Assembly: GCA_044892505.1 (NCBI GenBank)
Contig: CM097883.1
Location: 278,194,001 to 278,258,000 of the forward strand
Length of the DNA stretch: 64,000 nucleotides
Source: Schmidtea nova
Lineage: Eukaryota
Reading direction: 5' to 3'
The notes under the pieces are model-generated. The model saw only the letters and a list, made by a program, of their open reading frames with translations, was not told the DNA's origin and did no database searches. Every line of letters begins with the position of its first letter. Positions within the stretch are counted from its first letter, which is position 1. Position numbers and translations under genes: made by a program. Shown here one piece after another: positions 39,200-60,200 of this stretch.

Positions 39200-41034
39200 T
39201 TCTAAAATACCCCCCACTCCCCCGATATCACGAAATAATTATAGTTGCAAATCAATACATTCATATCTTTCATTAACACCATCAATATCTAATACCGTAC
39301 AAAAATTTATTCATACACCAATACACACATACAACATCGTTTCACTCATTAACATCCATCAGCATCACACATCCAGATAATCTCCACCTCCATTATTAAA
39401 TTGCCTATTGTATCAAATCCCATCTCTTACATACAATCACCACAATGAAAAATTCATAATTAATTTATAAAAGTGTTTACACACATCAACTTGCAATCAC
39501 TGCACCAACTCATAGCAAAGCACAACATCCTTTGATACAAACCCCTTGCATCTCACAACCTTGCCACCATAAATTCATCAAATCAACTTAGCCAGCAATC
39601 TACATCCACATCCATTGCACTACACATGAGAATTAAATCCTCCACACATCCATACAAATTAGTTCACCTCGTTCGTCAAAAATACCCATAACAATGAATT
39701 ACATCTAGATTAGATTATCAACCTCATACACTCAATTCACTTACCAATGTAATGCCCTAACTTCCTAGCTGCCTATTTAGAAAACCAAATTTTTGTATCA
39801 ACGAATTGATTACATTTCGAATTATTCCCACGACTCATATTAAAATTGTTATCAAGCTGTTTATGTGAAGAATGAAGAAGTAGCTCGAAGTCAAGCTCGG
39901 TATCGGACACTCCTGGCTTAATCGAATTGCAAAGCTACTCTAAACCACCTATTTCCACTACGTCAAGATTCTTGTACTGCCACTTAATAATATATTTTGG
40001 ACTTTGAGCACTAATTCACCAAGCTCCAAATCCTAAGAAACATCACTCCCCATTTGTATTATTATTAATTAAATGCCCAGATGAAAATATTAAAGAAAAA
40101 TAATTTATCATAAACATTATTGACTTAGGAAAAATCCAACTAAAAGTAGCAAAGATTTTATTTACCAAAATAAAACATTTCAACATCTACTTACAAAAGT
40201 TTTGACAAAAATCTGACTCGAAAAGTACCACGTCATAAATAAGATAAATTCCATAAGTAAATTGATGGGTGAAAATATAGCTTCAACAGAAGCTGTCATC
40301 TAATAACTTAACGAATTGAATTGCTCCAACGCCATTGAATGGAAGCTGTAAGGAAAATGTGAATAAGATAATATAATAGTAAACCTACCATCATCAAATT
40401 ATCCAGGAAGAGCGATGAATCCTCGAAGTTTGAGTCAAACCGATTGGCAGTTGGCTGCAGTTTGCAACGACTTTAAAACCTAGAAAATTTACACATATAC
40501 TGCATTTGCTATTAACAAGAAAATTACCCATTTTACAGCAGATTAGAAATCAGATCTTCGTTTCATCAGATCCACTCGTTGTTCTTATTGGGGGAATTTG
40601 AATTTGAAATCTTCGACTAAAATCATTAAATGTAGAGTATTAACATAAAATTAATTTACTTAGAAACATCCAGTGGAAAGGGAAAATACCAAAAATCTAA
40701 AAATAAATTCGAAATCAATAATCTGTTATAACAAAATAGATTTTAATAATAAATATAACTTACCCAATAGAACTTATTTAATTTTAAGTTGCATGTATAT
40801 AGTTTATTTCAGAATTGAAATTGGCCGTTTCAAAGGGTAAGGGAACGGGTTAAAACCTAATTTTGTGTAGTAAAAATAATTAACAAATTTTGGAATATTT
40901 ATTATATAACATCAACTGCTTCTAAAACTTTAAACTCAATTTCAAATACAATCAATATTAAAACAACTGAAATTAAATTAAACAATAATTAAATATAATA
41001 ATTAAATGAAGCACATCTCCCCGTGATGTCGTCA

Positions 41035-44000
41035 TCAATATCGCGTCAGTTCATAGTCATCCAAGTAACGTGGCGGATTTCGTACTCTTATACTTCTACG
41101 CACTGAATCGTCAACTTCTAACTCTGCTACCTCGGTAGTGTCTTGCATTTGTAATTCGTCCTCTGTGGAATTCTCTTTTTTTCTTATGTCGGAAACATGA
41201 CGAGGCATACCGTCAATTTCAAAATTTGTAGATGAATTTACTTTTGTCACTATTCCTTCATTCCACCGAGAAGTACATCTTGCATCAGGAGGTTTTACAA
41301 AAACCGCCTCTCCCACAGTAAACCCGCCTTCTGGATCTGTCAAGACATCTTCCACTTCATCTGGGTGTCTCCATACGTAATTGAACGTTAGGTCGGAAGG
41401 AGACAAGTCCTCATCAACATCGTCTCTTAACGGCAAATTGTACCAATAAACCATATCCAATGGTTCTTCACCAGGCCGTGCTGCGATACGCTTAATCGTT
41501 CTATGGTTCCGCTCGATTATCCCATTTCCAGCAGGTCGATATGCACATCTGAACATGCGCCTAACCTCCCACTTCTTGCACAGCGAATCCATCGCTCCAG
41601 ATCTAAAGGATGTAGTGTTATCTACGAGTATTTCTACTGGTGAACCTCTTTCCCTAAATATCTGCTCTAAATTTCGAATTATGACTCCAACTTCCTCGCT
41701 AGCTATCTCCCTCCAAATTGCAAACCGACTCGGTCCACAATCGATAAATGTTAAATACAGTGCCGTACTATCGCAAGTGCAACAAGTGCAATGACACTGG
41801 GCCCCCTATTTTTGAGGGGCCCCAAATATTAAATACATTGGAAAAACTTCTCCATTAGAAACAATATATTTTAGAAGATAATTATACTATTATGGAGAAT
41901 TTGGAATACATTTTAGAAAGAAGTTTGGAAGAATTAAATCCAAATGTATGTATCATATATCGAAAAATTTTAACAGTACCCATTTTTCCTTTGTGAACGA
42001 TCATTGTGAACAATCGTTTTCAAAACTAAAATTAATTGAAAATTATCTACGGTCTACAATGTCACAGGAAAGACTTCCTGGATTGGCAATACTGCCGATT
42101 GGAAATGCAACAGCCAGAGCAATTGATTACAATGATATAAATAATGAATTTGCCAGCAAAAAAGCTAAAAAAAATTTACTTTATAATTGGTTTGTATTAT
42201 TTTTTTAAATAAAATCAATAAAAAATTAATTCAAATTAAAAAAAATTTTTTTTAGTTTCTGCACAGGGCCCCCAAAGGTTACAGCACGGCGCTGGTTAAT
42301 TACCTTTTATCCTTATAGTGAGTCACGTCGACCGCGATCCTCTTCCAATTTACCTCGACATCAAGCTTCCCGTGCTTCCATGTAACCGGTGCTGGATCAA
42401 TAGATCTGCATTCAACACATTTGCTAATGACATCTTGCACGTCTTTCTTAGTAATATTTGGGAATTTTCTCTTAGCAAGATGCAACGTTCTTTCAACGCC
42501 TAAATAATGAGCATTGTGAGACTTTACTAAGTCATCCATTCTTGTAATTACTACAGATGTTACATCCTTTACCCAGTAAAACCACGTCTTAGGTACTCTC
42601 GTTAGTATATCCGCTTTGTTCCTCTCTGTAGATACTAACTCTATCGAAAGAGCTAAATTGAAACTTTCTTGCAACTCCTTGATTATCTGTAATCTCCGCT
42701 GAATTAACATCTCTGATATTCCGTGTGTACGTACTCTTTCTTGATTGGACAATATAGAGGTAACCCAACATTTCACAGTGGCTGAATCTGTTTTTATTAA
42801 GATTTCTTTCAGGCCCCAAGCTAGACTTACATTTATGCCTTTAATAACGGCATCTAGCTCGGCTACATTAATATGACATACATCAATCTTCTTCCTCAAC
42901 CAGGACGCATCTTCAACTACATGACCTCCAATTTCCAAACAAACACCCAAGGCCAAACTACTTGCTCACACCATACTACACCGTTAAGTTGTTCTGACAC
43001 ATGCCATTCGCCACGCACCGGGTCATCTTTGGAAACACGAGCAATAGTGTCAGTTAACATCTTTTGCGCAATATGCCCAATTTTATCATCCCATTTTTCT
43101 TCACTACTGTGACGTTTTATGAAACCGCACGCAACTCGCAACCAATTTGCTACTGATTAGTGACCGAGCAATTGACCACAAATTGAAAATAATTGACGTC
43201 TCGACACTTCCTGCCCACTCTTCAAGACAGGAAGCTCATTACCTCTTGTCCAAATCCGATCCATGTTACGCATTGTTATTTGCAATCCTAAAACTCTTGC
43301 ATCATCGAATTTCTCTGGATTTTTCACTTCTAACCCATATTTCTGCAAATGATTTATAACATCCAAGACGCAAACTAATGACTGGTCTACTATTATGTCG
43401 TCTATATAACTATCTGTCGCTTCAGCAATGTCACTTCGCAGACTCAACACCTTTTCAAAACACTAGACATAATCTTTGGGGCTACATTCAACCCGAATCC
43501 CAGTCTAGTCAAATAGTAAAACTTATCGTCATAGCATACATTTTGATACTTCCAACATTCTTCATCGACATGCAACTGTAAATAAGCATTCTTTAAGTAG
43601 AGCATAATAACATCTCTACCCATCTTTCGCCATTGTCTCAATGACTCTCCACACACGTCACTTTGCCCAGTGTGACTCTTGACGAACTTATTCAATTCTC
43701 GGAAATCCATAACAGGTCGAACTTTATTCTTGTTCGTCTGATCCACTGCCATTAATGGAATCGTACCACAGGCGCTTGATTCGGACGGTACAAGCCATCC
43801 TTCCTCTATCCAACGCCTCATCTCTGCATCAAACGGTGCTTGAATATCGTTTGTCATCTTATAACAAGCAATCTTGTTCCACAATATCGCTGGTCCAGAC
43901 TTCCATTTCCATTTGACGACCCATTTCTTGTCGAATCTAGCTTCGAAATCTTCGTCTATAATATTGATGACGTTCGGAGAAGAACTTGCCCCAGTGACAC

Positions 44001-44352
44001 ACTTATCACTCAGCGCACATACCTTCTCTTTCGAAAAAACGACTCCATCTCTACTAATCAGGACACCCCCTAATCTTCCAATAATATCCATGCCCAGGAT
44101 CATTTCAATATCGTAGGGTAATTCTTCGAGAGCCAGACAATTTACTCGTAAATCTATACCTCTAATCACCAAGTTTACTAATATATCACAATAACACGAC
44201 ACTGAGGTTCCATTTGCTATCATTACCTCGTCCTTTCTTCTCAACTGTTTGCTTACCAACGAAGACAAAACAACAGATATTGAGCATCCGGAATCAATCA
44301 AAGCATTTGCCTCTCTCCCATCCACGTTAATTGTGATTATTTGCAACGCCAT
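41035..44352 (-). pseudogene. pol: Gypsy pol (protease, RT, RNase H, integrase)
   Basis: LIDSG, RPVMDFRELN, YIDD, TDS/NKAD, H..H..C..C, VDVTH, NGIIER; frameshifts and a hAT insertion. Confidence 0.93.
41758..42294 (+). mobile_element. Non-autonomous hAT inserted in the Gypsy integrase
   Basis: TIRs CAGTGCCGTACT / AGCACGGCGCTG; TSD GTTAAATA / GTTAATTA; relic CEQSFSKLKLIENYLRSTMSQERL. Confidence 0.9.
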
Positions 44353-45041
44353 TACTGGTTCAATGGAGTAGACACCGGCGTTAGTGTTACCCCGTTGTCG
44401 TTTTTTGAATTCTTATTCGGACATACTCTAGATATGTGATCGGTGCCATTACAAGACCAACACTTTGTACCAAACTTCTTAAAACAACGTTCAGCTACGT
44501 GGCCAATCTTATCGCAATGAGTACAACGTTTTACTTTGTTATATACAACGTTGACACATTCAATGTCTTGAACTCTCGTATTCATCATTGCCCGTGTTAT
44601 CTGAACAATATCCTCCATTGGCATAGTATCAATCTATGGAGTAGCCTGCAACAATCTCGACACGTCTTTAGGGAGTCCTACGACAAAAGCGTTCCTAACG
44701 GAGTTCTCATTCACTCTTGCAAGTTTTGCATGAAATCTTAGATCGGCCAAAAATACATCCACTGATCCTCCAGTCCATCTACAATTTCTCATTTTTTCAT
44801 ATGATAAAAACATACTTGGAGAAAAAGCTTTTTCCAATGCATCCTCGATTGCTTCAAAACTAGCCTTGTCCCTTTCTGATAAATGTTCGTAGACGGCATA
44901 TGCATCACCTTTCAAAAGAATAGGCATAAGAACGTCTATAGTTTCTATCTTCAACATCTTTACAATTGATTTGAGTTGAGCAAACCAGCTTGCAACATTG
45001 CCGGTTCCATCGAATTTTTCCAGATATTTGAAAACTTCCAT
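44352..45041 (-). pseudogene. gag: Gypsy gag with two CCHC knuckles; in-frame TAG at ~44634
   Basis: CTHCDKIGHVAERC, CWSCNGTDHISRVC. Confidence 0.9.
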
Positions 45042-46233
45042 CGATGGCCGCGATAGCTTGTAGTAAAGATAATTAACAAATTTTGGAATATTTATTATAT
45101 AACATCAACTGCCTCTAAAACTTTAAACTCAATTTCAAATACAATCAACATTAAAACAACTGAAATTAAATTAAACAATAATTAAATATAATAACTAAAT
45201 TAAGCACATTTTGTAATATAAAATTAAAAGTACTATCTCTTCGCATTTATATATATATATATATCCTAATGCCTATCAACCCAGGTTTTCCTTTTGATAT
45301 TAACTCTAACTGTTCCCATTGCCAAGGCCTCTATAAAAGTTTCAAATTTAAAAACATTAAAGTTCCACCAAAAAATTAAAAATGATTTAAAGGACAAGAT
45401 AGACACTACGTAGGTTTAAGAGATAATTAAATTTTAGTTAAGTTTTCTATCATAAAAAATACGGAAATTGGAAAAAATCTCTAAAACAATAATCTTTTAG
45501 TCAAAATCAGCAGCGATCGAATACCCTTGAATATATGCATTCTTGAAGGAATATTCGGTCCCTGAATCGAGTAGCGATCATATTCTACATGAGAACGATG
45601 TTGTATGAGTAAGTACATAAAAAACCTTTGCATTTCTGAGATCAATAACTTTTACTTGCTTGAAATAAATGTTTTTATAACTACAAATAAAGTAAAATTC
45701 GTTGTAGACATCACAAAATCGATCGATTTAATACCAGATTTGACGGAAGTGCTCGTAAAATAAAACCAAGGACAAAATATTTGCACGAACCGAATATTTT
45801 GATACTGTGATGATATGATTTTTATAATTTTGCTGTGTTTATTGATTTGCTATGTGTATCTTAAATATATCCTTACTTAAATTGGTTAGTGTTTTGATGA
45901 TTGGAATGATTTCTTTTAATACAATAATAAATTTATTTTGAAGTAGATTATTTATTTTGAATTTTCCGATTAAAATCTTGTCGAATGCTTGTAGATAAAC
46001 CGTTAAATGGGCATTAAACCTTCTATCGGTAGCCCTTGGACCCAGGAGATATTCGGTCAATCATAGTTTCGAAGTTTTCGACGCTCACTGATTGCGAATA
46101 CCCACCCATTTGTTACCAACTTTACCAACTTTACATTGTGACGGGCAACAAGATGGTTAATTCAATGTTTTATGTGTTGAGTTGTTGATGTGAGCCATAA
46201 CAATGTCAAGGTCATATTGACGGTCAACAACCC

Positions 46234-47320: not shown

Positions 47321-49453
47321 TTATTGCTTCAGAACACTTTTCAATCCAAACAATTGAACTCTTTTGCGACAATGCCTCATGCAATCTTTTCGTCTTAATG
47401 ATCTTTTAGATTTTATTCTTTTCATTTTAGCTCTTTTGCAATGTCTTTTGCAGCCACATTTGATGCTTAATCGTCGTCTTTGACCTACAATATAAATATA
47501 TTGAATTAATATTTAGACCACCTAAAATCAAATAAAATATTATTAAGATACCCTAAAGCAGTGGTTGTCAACTAATTTAAAAGCGCGGAACACCATTCAC
47601 ATGATTTTTTTACGCGGAACACTGACAAAAAATACATAAAAACATTCACAAACGAACATATTATTTCATTTTTGAATAATGAAACGACTTTTGAACCTTC
47701 TTCTATTAATAAATGGTCTTGAAGATATTAAATATAAACGCACATTACCAAAAAACAAATTTATTCAACAAAGAAATACTTACACGAAAAAAATTAAACA
47801 TTCACAGTGCAAATTACACGCAAACATATATACAACAAAAATAAAACAGTAAAAAAACAAATACTATATTATAGTAGAAAAACAAGTGTATTAATTTATT
47901 GATAATCACATTTATTCACTGCCGATCTTTTAAAAATGTACATCTCGAAACTTGGATAACGAATGTTTCATATTTAATTTTACTCTATAATTGGGAAAAT
48001 CTCATGGTGGAGCCACAATGAGTGACCAATCACAAATTACTATAACCCTATCGTAAACGTAAACAATGCCTTCTTAGAAGCAATGAAAATGCCACGAGCA
48101 ACAATAACAAGCAATAAAAATTGGATAATCCTGGCTCAAAATTTGAGCCTATCTGTGTGCGGCGTTGTGTTGATGTGCGCACTCTTATGTGTTTTTCTTG
48201 CTCGCGCCAGTGTGCGCATGATTATAATTTTATTTTATTTTGTCTCGCGTCCGTGTGCGCATAGATCTATCACGTCTGTGTGCGCATTTTTGGTGTAGAA
48301 TTGATTAATCTTTTAGAATTAAAGTCTGGTTTTATTATTTGATAATTTGGTTGTTTTACTGCTTCTTTTTGGGGATTTTTCGAAATGGATTATTTTGTTA
48401 TTGATAATTTTGCTGAACAATTGGAATTTAATTGGAATGAGTTTTTTGATTCAAATTTTGCTGAACAATTGGAATTTAATTGGAATTTGGTAGTTTATTA
48501 AAAATGGATTTAAAAATAAAAAAGTTATTGGCCATATGGATTAATTCTGTTGACAATGAAGGCGAATTGCAATACAAATCTGAAAGCTCCGTCGTGCAAA
48601 TTCTTGACAAAGTCAATTGCCAAATCATTTCAAAAATGTCCCATGATCATGTGGATTCTTATGTGTTGAGGGAAAGCAGTTTGTTCGTATCGCAAAGGAG
48701 AATAATCCCAGAAACTTGTGGCACAACATTTCTATTAAATGCTTCGAAATCGATATTGGAATTTGGCAAATGTTTAGCGTTTCATGAATACCAGATATTT
48801 CATTCGCGTCGACGATTTGAATATCCTGCTTGTCAAATATTGGTTGCTCAAGACTTTTTTGATGAAATTGATCATTTCGATACTCTTGCTAATGTCAAAG
48901 GAAATGCCTACTCATTTGGTCGATCCAATGCTTCTTTAGACGTTTTCCAATTTATCTATGAAACTTGCGACATTGTGATGGCCAAATTGTTTGATGGAAA
49001 TAGAAGTACTTATGTAATCGTCTTGGCTCAATTAAAACAAAAATACTTTTATCTTTGTATGTTTATATATCTGTGTAACGGGTTTCTTATTGAATCATTT
49101 TATAAAAAAATTAATTGAGATTTTTGATGATATTTATCTTAAATGCAAATTTAAAGATAAAATGTAGATTTTTCACGGAACACTGAAAGCGGATTCGCGG
49201 AACACGGGTTGAGAACCACTGCTCTAATGGATAAAATTTAAAACATTTTTATTAATATACATAATGTTATTCAACATTCAATTAATAAAAATGAAAGAAA
49301 AATGAAATTTTACTATAACTATTATTTTTAATCGACCACAGGACATTTTTACTTCAGTGTTTTTTGAAAACAAACTTTTCTCTATCGAATAATGCATAAT
49401 TTATTAATTATTTTTACATGTAATATTTTACTCTTTTTTATACATTTGTTTAA

Positions 49454-57200: not shown

Positions 57201-60200
57201 CTTTGTAATTGTGATAATTTATTTACAATTAATCTTTAAATGAATTTTAATAAAAACATTTACTTTATTTTTTGCTGTTAGATCGCTTATATTTTTATTT
57301 TGTATCAATATTTATCTAAAGATTAATTATTATTATCAATAATTCTCATAATGACTATAGATCAAATTTTTTTTTATAAACAATAACACAATATTTCGGC
57401 ACAGCCTTTATCAAGTGTGTATCTTGTGTACACTTGATAAAGGCTGTGCCGAAATATTGTGTTATTGTTTATAAAAAAAAATTTGATCTATAGTCATTAT
57501 GAGAATTATTGATAATAATAATAAAAAAAGATCAAAGGTGAAAAAAAGATAATTATGATAAAGATTAATTATAAATAAATTATCGCAATTACCAAAATCC
57601 ACTAATAAATGAAAAATTAACACAACTTAATGAAATATTAATATTATTTAATGCAAAAGTCATATAAATTAAATGAGAAACCCTATATCATCATATGGGC
57701 AGATTTTGAGATTACAAAGATCGATAATTAAATAAAAATTTAATCAACATGTAATTTTTCCAATCAGGATTTTTGATTTTATAATTAATTTTTAAACTCA
57801 CTTGAAGATTTTGGCGGAACAAAACCAAATGGTGAAATATTTAGAAGTGGTTGGTACATAATAGCTTGATTGTCACTTTCAGATTTGACATAATAAAACA
57901 CCTATAATATTAAATTGAGAAATTAATAATTCTGATAAATTCACCCCTTGAGATCCAGCTTTCCATTGCGCGTTGATAACATCAAGTTGACTCGGAATAG
58001 GATAGAAATTACTTAGCCCAGCTTTAGCAATAGATGTTGTATCAATTTTACCTTTGTGAATCACATATGTTTCTTTTGAAACTAAAAACCACTTATTCAT
58101 TAACTTATTTATATATTTCCATTTTCTACAGATAATAGATCTATTTTTTATTTATAGTTCAAAAATGAATTTGAAAAATTAAAAATGGAGATGATATAAA
58201 TTTTAGTGAAAATTATTTATGTTTAACTACTAACATTTGCAATGGATCACATACAAGCACATTTATAATAAAGTATTATATATGACATATATGATATAGT
58301 TATATATATATATATATATCTGTGTGTTACAGTTAATGCATAAATTGCAGTGAGTGTATACACTAACTAGTTGATGTATGATTTCACTTGTTGTTTTAGT
58401 AAAAGTATACATTATTTCAAATGATACATACTATATCTAGTCAATGCATTCATTAACTAATAAGTGTATACACCCACTGATTCGCATTAGTGATAGTATT
58501 AGTTGAATGATTCTAACCTCAAAATTATAAAGACTTGTGCTAGTTTTGTCTACTGCAAATAGAAATCGTGCGAAATTTACGAAAAAGATGAAAAAACACT
58601 AATTTATTAATGATAATTTATCTAATTTATCTCGGATAAAAATATCACGAAAATCGTTTTTTACGAAAATCAAATATTATTTTAGAAAACTATGAAACAA
58701 CTTGGCTATAACCCGGTATTTTCGTTTAAATTAAAATAAAAACAAATTTCAACAAATTAATTTTTATTGCACATTGAATATTTATTTGGTTTTACAAATT
58801 TAAAATACTTTAACTAATCTTCAGTAGAAGGTATATACACTAACAAGTGGAAGTATTCATAAATTTATTTGTGTATACTTTCTCTGATTAGTTTAGTTTA
58901 AGTATACTTAAGCTAGTGGGCGTATACATTTACTAAGTTGATGCTTTAACTGTAACACACACACACACATATAATTATTTCCTGGTAGCAGCATTAATTA
59001 AATATGCTGAATTTTAAATTAATTTAGTGTCATAAATACAAAAGTTTGACTTGTGTGTTCTTTAAATAAAAGATGTTACACTTAAAAATTAAATAATTTA
59101 TTAGTCAAATATCACAAATATCCAATAACGTAACTAGTTTTGAAAACCAAGTAAATATTTTATTATTTCATAAATTCTCGTTAAAATCTCTGTCAAATCC
59201 TTCAAAAGGCGATTTCTACGTTTGAATATAAACCTTCGAGTCAATCGTTGTTTTGATCTTTTCATTTTAGGTCTCTGTCAGGAAAACGTTAGATCTCAAG
59301 CTTTATTTCCACCTAGGTCATTTAAAATCATATAACTTTAAAATCAATATTTTGTTTTACTCTTTCACGATTATTGATGGATTAATATAAATTTAATTAA
59401 TTAATTAGTCTGCTCTTTTACATCTATACTTCCTAGAGTCCCCCTTTTAGATTTATTAATATTTTATAAGTATTTATATTTTTGTTTTTAGTTTTCCGCC
59501 TAATGCATGTTGATTTCCAGGCCTCTAACTCAATTAATTAATTTTTGATAAATTACTGACACCGTTTATGTTATCCTTTAATTTCTGATCACTTTACATT
59601 GTTTTATTTGGCCCAATATTTTAAGCAGTCTCAACAAATATAATATATTTAATAAAAATTGTTATTATCATATCTGAATTTTATATGATTATTATTATAT
59701 TTAATACGAATTTACAGCGAATTTACGTAGAAATAATTCAGGACAAAATTTATTAGAAAGATTTGTTCAGACTAAATGTCTCGATGAAAATACTCATTTT
59801 TATGAATGGAAATATTAAAACATCTTCCAAAGATTGTTTTATTTTCATTTTTTTACAAAGACTAGACCAATATGTATTTTTAAAGCTATTTTGAAAAACA
59901 ATATATTGACCTAGTCTATAAAAAAATGAAAATTTCTAAATAGAAACGAAAAGATCAATGGTAAAAATATGAGATGTTATGATATTTGTCTTATTGTTAC
60001 ATAGTAAGAATTAGATGTAATTACCGTAGCAGTCAACAGTGCCCTTTGACGTTCATTTTTATAAAATGGATCATCTAAATTACTATTTATTACGTCAAGA
60101 AAATCAAGAAAAATTTCTTAAAAATTATCATTGTTTATTGAATTATTTATTCATAATATAAGTGAAGATCTTTGTAAAAATAATAAGAACCTGTATTTTG

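Follow-up and report, generated by a model that had tools for sequence, protein, structure and literature searches.

In the 64,000-nucleotide stretch of the Schmidtea nova genome analyzed here (the window), LTR comparison and ORF inspection revealed a 4343-bp LTR element on the minus strand at 40866-45208 (Table 1). Direct LTRs with TG..CA ends, a target site duplication (TSD), a polypurine tract (PPT), gag and pol are all present, which identifies it as an LTR retrotransposon. A clear 5-bp TSD was found for the window copy and for 8 of the 14 fetched copies having both LTRs. In Pfam, its gag gave a weak match to PF03732 and a match to PF00098, and the gag profile of the clade recognized it with an E-value of 1.6e-66. 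The primer-binding site (PBS), AGCTATCGCGGC, abuts the terminal CA of the 5′ LTR, and the gag ATG lies 5 nt past it. Loose ends of DNA contigs at 45058/45059 coincide with the border of the 5′ LTR and the PBS.

Table 1. Features of the two LTR elements in the window
Feature	Position	Strand	Remarks
5′ LTR	45059-45208	-	150 bp, TG..CA; 96.7% identity to 3′ LTR
PBS	45047-45058	-	AGCTATCGCGGC; exact complement of nt 1-12 of host tRNA-Phe(GAA)
gag	44370-45041	-	Capsid-like domain and zinc knuckles; disrupted by an in-frame stop
pol	41047-44349	-	PR-RT-RNase H-IN; interrupted by stops, frameshifts and an insertion
Foreign insertion, ~540 bp	41757-42294	.	In integrase region; inverted-repeat-like ends; gap in alignment to sister copy L221
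Hairpin, 5 bp (TGATG/CATCA)	41024-41037	-	Ends exactly 8 nt before 3′ LTR
PPT, 8 nt, G-rich	41016-41023	-	
3′ LTR, 150 bp	40866-41015	-	
TSD CAAAA, 5 bp	40861-40865	-	Second copy at 45209-45213
Second element, decayed 5′ LTR	16014-16142	-	Left edge approximate
Second element, PBS	16002-16013	-	AGCTATCCGGGC; exact complement of nt 1-12 of host tRNA-Lys(UUU)
Second element, truncated gag	15594-16001	-	Clade gag profile E 9e-14

The initial annotation had noticed a second, diverged remnant with a PBS at the same junction, and such a remnant indeed exists. Its PBS follows CA, and the gag ATG comes at 0 nt from the PBS. Only the 5′ part of this element remains, and it belongs to a different family, with 82% identity to L226 over 15581-16142 (blastn). 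The annotated spacing of 0-5 nt between PBS and gag ATG thus holds for both window elements but not clade-wide, where the distance ranges from 0 to ~250 nt. Elsewhere in the window, exons of a TATA-binding-protein-like gene and of S-adenosylmethionine decarboxylase lie at 19970-20404 and 48480-49115, respectively. Weak matches to endonuclease VII and a protein-primed-type DNA polymerase B at 29212-30611 perhaps represent a decayed Polinton/Maverick. A Tc1/mariner-like transposase remnant was recognized by eye at 12700-13700, and near-perfect palindromic MITE-like repeats occupy 32806-33433 and 57323-57537.

Do host tRNAs really start with the complements of these sites? The Phe 12-mer has 3292 exact matches in the host genome (1.25 Gb) versus 6 for the reversed control, and the Lys 12-mer has 1127 versus 1 for its control. 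Thus, the matches are not due to chance. Among the Phe matches, 2511 run on with CAG as tRNA genes; the first 100 of these listed form a 240-bp tandem array, in which ARAGORN detected a tRNA-Phe(GAA) starting with the 12-mer. Likewise, 682 of the Lys matches run on with CAG (tRNA-like 15-mers), and the sampled array consists of tRNA-Lys(UUU). Host tRNAs starting with both 12-mers therefore exist. The early assignment to tRNA-Lys(UUU) stands, for the second element; the site that had been called Phe/Thr-like fits tRNA-Phe(GAA) and not tRNA-Thr, according to ARAGORN. The tandem arrays of the host are very large, with ~2500 tRNA-Phe, 680 tRNA-Lys(UUU), and up to ~180 tRNA-Lys(CUU) matches and unit lengths of 240, 419, and 739-1924 bp, respectively. 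Host tRNA arrays were located at C1:566.9 Mb, C3:72.8 Mb, and C2:333.4 Mb (L031, L150, and L405). The first 28 nt of tRNA-Lys(UUU) occur on their own at L149:1501-1528, with unrelated sequence downstream, and may derive from reverse transcription of a 5′ fragment or from the head of a SINE.

Outside the tRNA genes, the host genome has ~780 Phe-type and 445 Lys-type sites. In the first 30 of each, CA precedes 28 Phe-type and all 30 Lys-type sites; an ATG follows 26 of the Phe-type sites at a distance of up to 11 nt and 29 of the Lys-type sites at up to 3 nt. Clustering of the sampled scattered copies at 80% DNA identity gave 10 Phe and 3 Lys groups. When 30 host copies were picked by gag similarity alone, the PBS was exact in 23, had one mismatch in 6, and two mismatches in 1. 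The PBS had no listed variant in four DNA runs of one study, while neighbouring bases do vary. No joints were seen in the contigs of these four runs, and no LTR-LTR junctions able to reveal cDNA ends were found for one young family. Another 12-mer, AGCTATGACGGC, was considered as a third host PBS and rejected; no tRNA starts so, and neither gag nor pol lies downstream. Four PBS variants known from foreign elements have 172 matches together in the host genome versus 147 for the control. None of six sampled host matches of the foreign Phe variant GCCGAAATAGCT lies at a junction, and three of four sampled matches of GCCGAGATAGCT lie in element copies whose PBS departs from the host Phe site by a single change. 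Judging from these counts, the host does not use the foreign Phe variants as PBSs.

Is the site common in related elements? I scanned metagenome contigs with conserved pol peptides and obtained 77 loci, 61 of which have a gag match; leaving out 3 loci lacking a gag start gave 58 informative loci, some of which are near-duplicates. AGCTA plus 7 nt was found directly after the LTR end in 57 of the 58 (53 loci, L097, L098, and L101 with the site further upstream, and L130), while the remaining locus, L124, starts inside the site. This agrees with the initial annotation, which had described a spacer-free PBS other than the usual TGG type. Since the site search was keyed on AGCT, raw upstream sequences of the pol-selected loci were inspected as well, and no TGG-type site after CA was seen in them. 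Four of the 57 sites have a 1-nt indel or a mismatch at the end facing tRNA nt 1-3. In four metagenome loci with both LTRs, unrelated DNA follows the 3′ LTR, so the site is flush with the LTR there too. Three more members were found on small contigs in bacterial bins: one with a further Phe-like variant, one with a site for Lys(UUU), and one matching Lys(CUU) over 10 nt; the PBS of L393 matches 10 nt only. The contigs concerned (L390-L394, from three bacterial MAGs) are probably eukaryotic contamination of the bins. Viral contigs yielded no lineage member, only one weak integrase match, and none of 120 pattern matches in them had gag or pol.

The variation of the site follows the tRNA. Among 54 distinct junctions, gathered using a list of 12-mers already seen, PBS nt 1-5 (tRNA U12-U8) are invariant in all 54, nt 6-9 vary, and nt 10-12 are kept in 51-53. 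In the same junctions, column information drops from 1.64 to 0.32 bits directly past PBS nt 12. Relatives selected by pol or by gag thus keep the site rather than showing arbitrary or TGG-type PBSs, and they vary mainly at acceptor-stem positions, as tRNA 5′ ends themselves do. The commonest foreign variant, AGCTATTTCGGC, sits within a Drosophila tRNA-Phe 5′ probe in the available part of PMC7038984, and another, GCCTAGATAGCT, begins a tRNA-Phe(GAA) gene in L269. PBS variants switch between sister elements with SH-aLRT values of 91-99 in a quick RT tree of 56 rows. The Schmidtea nova genome is the one in which the PBS was matched to the tRNA of the element's own host.

From these sequences, the sites probably bind the 5′ tip of host tRNA-Phe(GAA) or tRNA-Lys, which would be cut at or near U12 and prime the minus strand. 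The initial annotation had proposed priming by a ~12-nt 5′ tRNA fragment cut in the D-stem; the pairing supports this proposal, and from it I infer the priming and the cut after U12. A 12-nt 5′ tRNA fragment would, however, be shorter than the tRFs commonly described. A primer ending at tRNA nt 10 seems improbable. The first PBS bases, AG, would then be a dinucleotide removed by integrase, and the match at nt 11-12 would be incidental. Since AG is invariant, there is no covariation at nt 11-12 that could speak against this, and many Gypsy-type elements have 2 nt between the LTR and the PBS (DGLT-A, in the accessible text of PMC5006619). However, C11-U12 of the tRNA predicts exactly AG, and the pairing stops at the CA of the LTR. 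Moreover, no matching symmetry is seen at the other end, where the dinucleotide preceding the 3′ LTR is free to vary (GA, AA, AG, GG, and CG).

Can the primer come from the element itself or from the other end of the tRNA? The flush position and the length of 11-12 nt resemble those of Tf1, whose own transcript 5′ end serves as a primer, and a displaced tRNA strand might allow classical priming by its 3′-CCA end. Both ideas are largely refuted already and deserve very little credence. In all 15 copies compared (four of them with LTRs only partly bounded), the longest stretch of primer sequence in the LTR measures 0-5 nt, which speaks against the pairing with the element's own transcript that had been named as an objection to the tRNA reading. 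The upstream 1500 nt of 60 loci contain no match with fewer than 2 mismatches, and comparison of 12 elements gave no conserved stretch complementary to the tRNA 3′ end. A bipartite PBS like that of Ty3 was also considered and rejected; only scattered 9-11-nt matches occur at varying places. No conserved match to other parts of tRNA-Phe or tRNA-Lys, the two tRNAs compared, was found, including the anticodon stem-loop.

It is also conceivable that the 12-mer binds tRNAs or 5′ tRFs for packaging, for translation control of the gag ATG, or for host silencing, with priming achieved otherwise. The gag ATG usually lies within a few nt of the PBS, and tRFs target PBSs in mammals, as stated in the available part of PMC7472051. 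Nevertheless, this is a distant prospect: no alternative PBS was found (no TGG after CA, no self-priming partner, and no conserved second tRNA-complementary site), and the site is fixed to the LTR end even though the distance to the ATG varies as widely as described above.

A footprint of tRNA use may be seen in the Lys-type elements. Host tRNA-Lys(CUU) and tRNA-Lys(UUU) differ at nt 7 of the first 12, which faces PBS nt 6. Genome-wide, 11 Lys-type junctions have a residue other than T at PBS nt 6, namely 7 G, 2 A, and 2 C; all the G and both A sites belong to elements, while both C sites do not. The T>G change makes the PBS of the 7 copies an exact complement of host tRNA-Lys(CUU). These copies belong to two Lys(UUU) families with at least 2 LTR subtypes; in one copy, PBS nt 6 is the sole departure from the family majority over ~785 nt. 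As controls, the same position of the Phe PBS has 3 A, 2 C, and 0 G (not filtered for element status), Lys PBS nt 4 has 6 A, 0 C, and 0 G (4 of the A being independent element copies), and Lys PBS nt 5 has 2 variants. Against a background in which T>G makes up 23% of the changes at T columns, the excess gave a binomial p of 0.005 and a Fisher p of 0.0009 (copy numbers) or 0.03 (variant types), where the excess is 7 copies and the mutual independence of all 7 is assumed. Few as they are, and with an unrelated T>A change at nt 4 reaching 4 independent copies, these variants are only suggestive of real use of the tRNA tip. Either the primer is copied into the progeny, as in retroviruses (according to the available part of PMC7472051), or a variant that happens to match a tRNA stays mobile; the tip would be used by either route.

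How might the tip be made into a primer? A whole tRNA, or a longer 5′ fragment of it, would be packaged, and the 12-bp duplex with the PBS would open the acceptor and D stems. The predicted PBS/tRNA duplexes have energies of -22.7 and -23.5 kcal/mol, versus 12.7-18.9 kcal/mol for opening the tRNA, and opening the PBS costs 1-9 kcal/mol, all calculated for unmodified RNA. Since the duplex energy exceeds the opening cost but the PBS must also be opened, binding of an intact tRNA is plausible and not strongly favoured. No conserved fold was found around the PBS in 13 sequences. The overhang from C13 would then be removed, and the simplest agent may be the RNase H of the element, with a cut made where an RNA:RNA duplex ends, as in Tf1. 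The D/E/D/D catalytic residues of RNase H are invariant in 50 of 50 sequences. I regard this choice of enzyme as an even call. The cut at or near U12 would leave a 3′-OH from which minus-strand DNA is primed. Plus-strand synthesis would copy the primer, by which the tip of a mis-primed tRNA-Lys(CUU) may be written into the PBS.

Alternatively, the same tip may reach the element as a ready-made host fragment or be trimmed by a nuclease of the host (an RNase P-like enzyme or a 3′ exonuclease). Sequence cannot name the cutting enzyme, and the half-tRNA primers of the copia type show that cut tRNAs are usable (PMC6317226 and PMC10886601, in the text available). This origin seems the less likely of the two. 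The same 12-nt end point is found across many hosts and three tRNA species. Because this end point recurs, a duplex-guided cut by a conserved enzyme of the element is the simpler explanation.

The plus-strand end has a trait of its own. With the PPT chosen blind to structure and six loci without a G-rich tract left out, a perfect stem of 4-7 bp ends 8 nt before the 3′ LTR in 49 of 56 distinct sites, compared with 0-4 sites at offsets 12-40. Four of the misses look like mis-called PPTs. The stems covary (TGATC, TGAAC, TGATG, AGTTC, AGATT, TGGCG, and others, each with its complement). The 8-nt G tract is the likely plus-strand primer, and the hairpin before it probably sets the 5′ boundary of this very short primer.

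The elements are small. Complete host copies are 3.56-3.8 kb long with LTRs of 91-250 bp, and several are recent since their two LTRs are identical; four metagenome copies are 4.0-4.3 kb long. Internal deletions in L028 and L063 fuse gag in frame to RT, without a protease. The initial label 'Gypsy' fits loosely: the domain order agrees, but by profile score the RT lies no nearer to canonical Gypsy than to retroviruses. The clade profile gave 20-27 bits with canonical Gypsy RTs of the host and 26-49 bits with HIV, MLV, and foamy virus RTs, and only 4.8e-10 with Ty3 Gag-Pol, best in the integrase. In 50 of 50 pol sequences DUF7047 was detected, and PF17917 and PF17919 in none of the 50. The nearest Atlas clusters are Gypsy polyproteins. 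A structure model (pLDDT 85.9) bears a loose resemblance to foamy-virus and HIV RTs, without giving the clade a place. The great distance of the RT from canonical Gypsy could reflect a deep branch or fast evolution. At 50% identity, 1571 clusters match the clade profile at E up to 1e-30. The named relatives, known here from their proteins, come from the nematode Trichuris suis, the insect Macrosteles quadrilineatus, and the sponge Sycon ciliatum. A sister group (P0327, P0337, P0339, and P0346, from Sycon ciliatum and others) has the same DUF7047 RT-RH with a longer, more canonical integrase.

Putting the parts together, I tentatively propose an old, minimal, unnamed lineage with a DUF7047-type RT, ranging from sponge to insect, that would use a fourth priming mode. 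Its own RNase H would cut the tRNA after U12, the 12-nt tip would prime and be copied back so that the PBS tracks the host tRNA, and the plus strand would start from the hairpin-delimited 8-nt tract. As a whole, this scheme falls slightly short of an even chance.

Has this PBS been noticed before? No published report of a PBS matching tRNA nt 1-12 was found in a literature search, whose reach did not extend to subscription journals, Repbase Reports, and GyDB; the 12-mers themselves appeared only within unrelated primer or tRNA papers. There is a modest chance that it has been noticed somewhere. The available parts of PMC10886601, PMC13524379, PMC5006619, PMC4558846, and PMC7472051 mention only 3′-end, anticodon-loop, unknown, or polypyrimidine sites, those of PMC6238403 and PMC8556966 name clades without PBS data, and PMC2774666 gave no text match on the subject. 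PBS searches using tRNA 3′ ends only, as in the methods portions seen of PMC13524379 and PMC4558846, cannot detect sites of this kind and would record the lineage as PBS-less. If the tip is used, 5′ tRNA fragments become candidates for cofactors or inhibitors of transposition, a field that has so far concentrated on 3′ fragments, and biochemistry gains a compact RT-RNase H that handles primers unusually at either end of the element.

How does the lineage compare with known elements? Cigr-1 is a 4.2-kb element with one ORF of ~1200 amino acids, like members of the present lineage, and Gypsy-Cigr or a MolGy/MolAn clade may be among its closest known counterparts. The canonical Ty3/Gypsy elements (Metaviridae) have TG..CA LTRs, a 5-bp TSD, a zinc-knuckle gag, and the order PR-RT-RH-IN, as do the elements described here. 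In contrast to them, the present elements have no TGG PBS, an RT-RH with DUF7047 and without PF17917/PF17919, an 8-nt PPT behind a hairpin, and a total length of only 3.6-4.3 kb. Canonical Gypsy elements of the host (L231-L250 and other PF17917 matches) have open frames of up to ~5000 amino acids, the opposite extreme to the 3.6-kb elements. Troyka/Kuafuorterviruses form a deep-branching animal LTR lineage once classed as Gypsy (PMC12440569 and PMC11673190, in part); the words 'PBS', 'tRNA', and 'primer' do not occur in the main text of these two papers. Identity with Troyka was rejected, since Troyka has CG..CG ends and a 3-bp TSD in the accessible text of PMC12440569, unlike the TG..CA ends and 5-bp TSD found here.

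As to priming, three primer types are distinguished in plant LTR retrotransposons in the available part of PMC6317226: the 3′ end of a whole tRNA, an anticodon-cut half tRNA, and a self-primer. The half-tRNA elements of the Ty1/copia group (copia, Ty5, Osser, Bryco, Bianca, and fungal Helenus) likewise use a 5′ tRNA piece made by an internal cut and have a PBS without TGG (PMC6317226 and PMC10886601, as far as their text was available). Their tRNA is cut in the anticodon stem and their PBS is complementary to the anticodon region; the plant survey, in the part available, assigns this mode to copia lineages only. In the elements described here, by contrast, nt 1-12 are the part of the tRNA paired with the PBS, the D stem would be the place of the cut, and the domain order is PR-RT-RH-IN. 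In Tf1, RNase H releases a primer of 11 nt. In Tf1 and sushi elements, too, the PBS is short and lies where the LTR ends, and cleavage releases the primer from an RNA 5′ end (PMC6317226, in part), whereas the present elements would take it in trans from a host tRNA instead of their own transcript, and their LTRs have no complement to the PBS. Judged by sequence, 5′-tip priming would be a new form of priming by cut tRNAs. It may even amount to a fourth mode, in a deep lineage that has no name so far. If true, the 12-nt tip bridges half-tRNA priming and the self-priming of Tf1.
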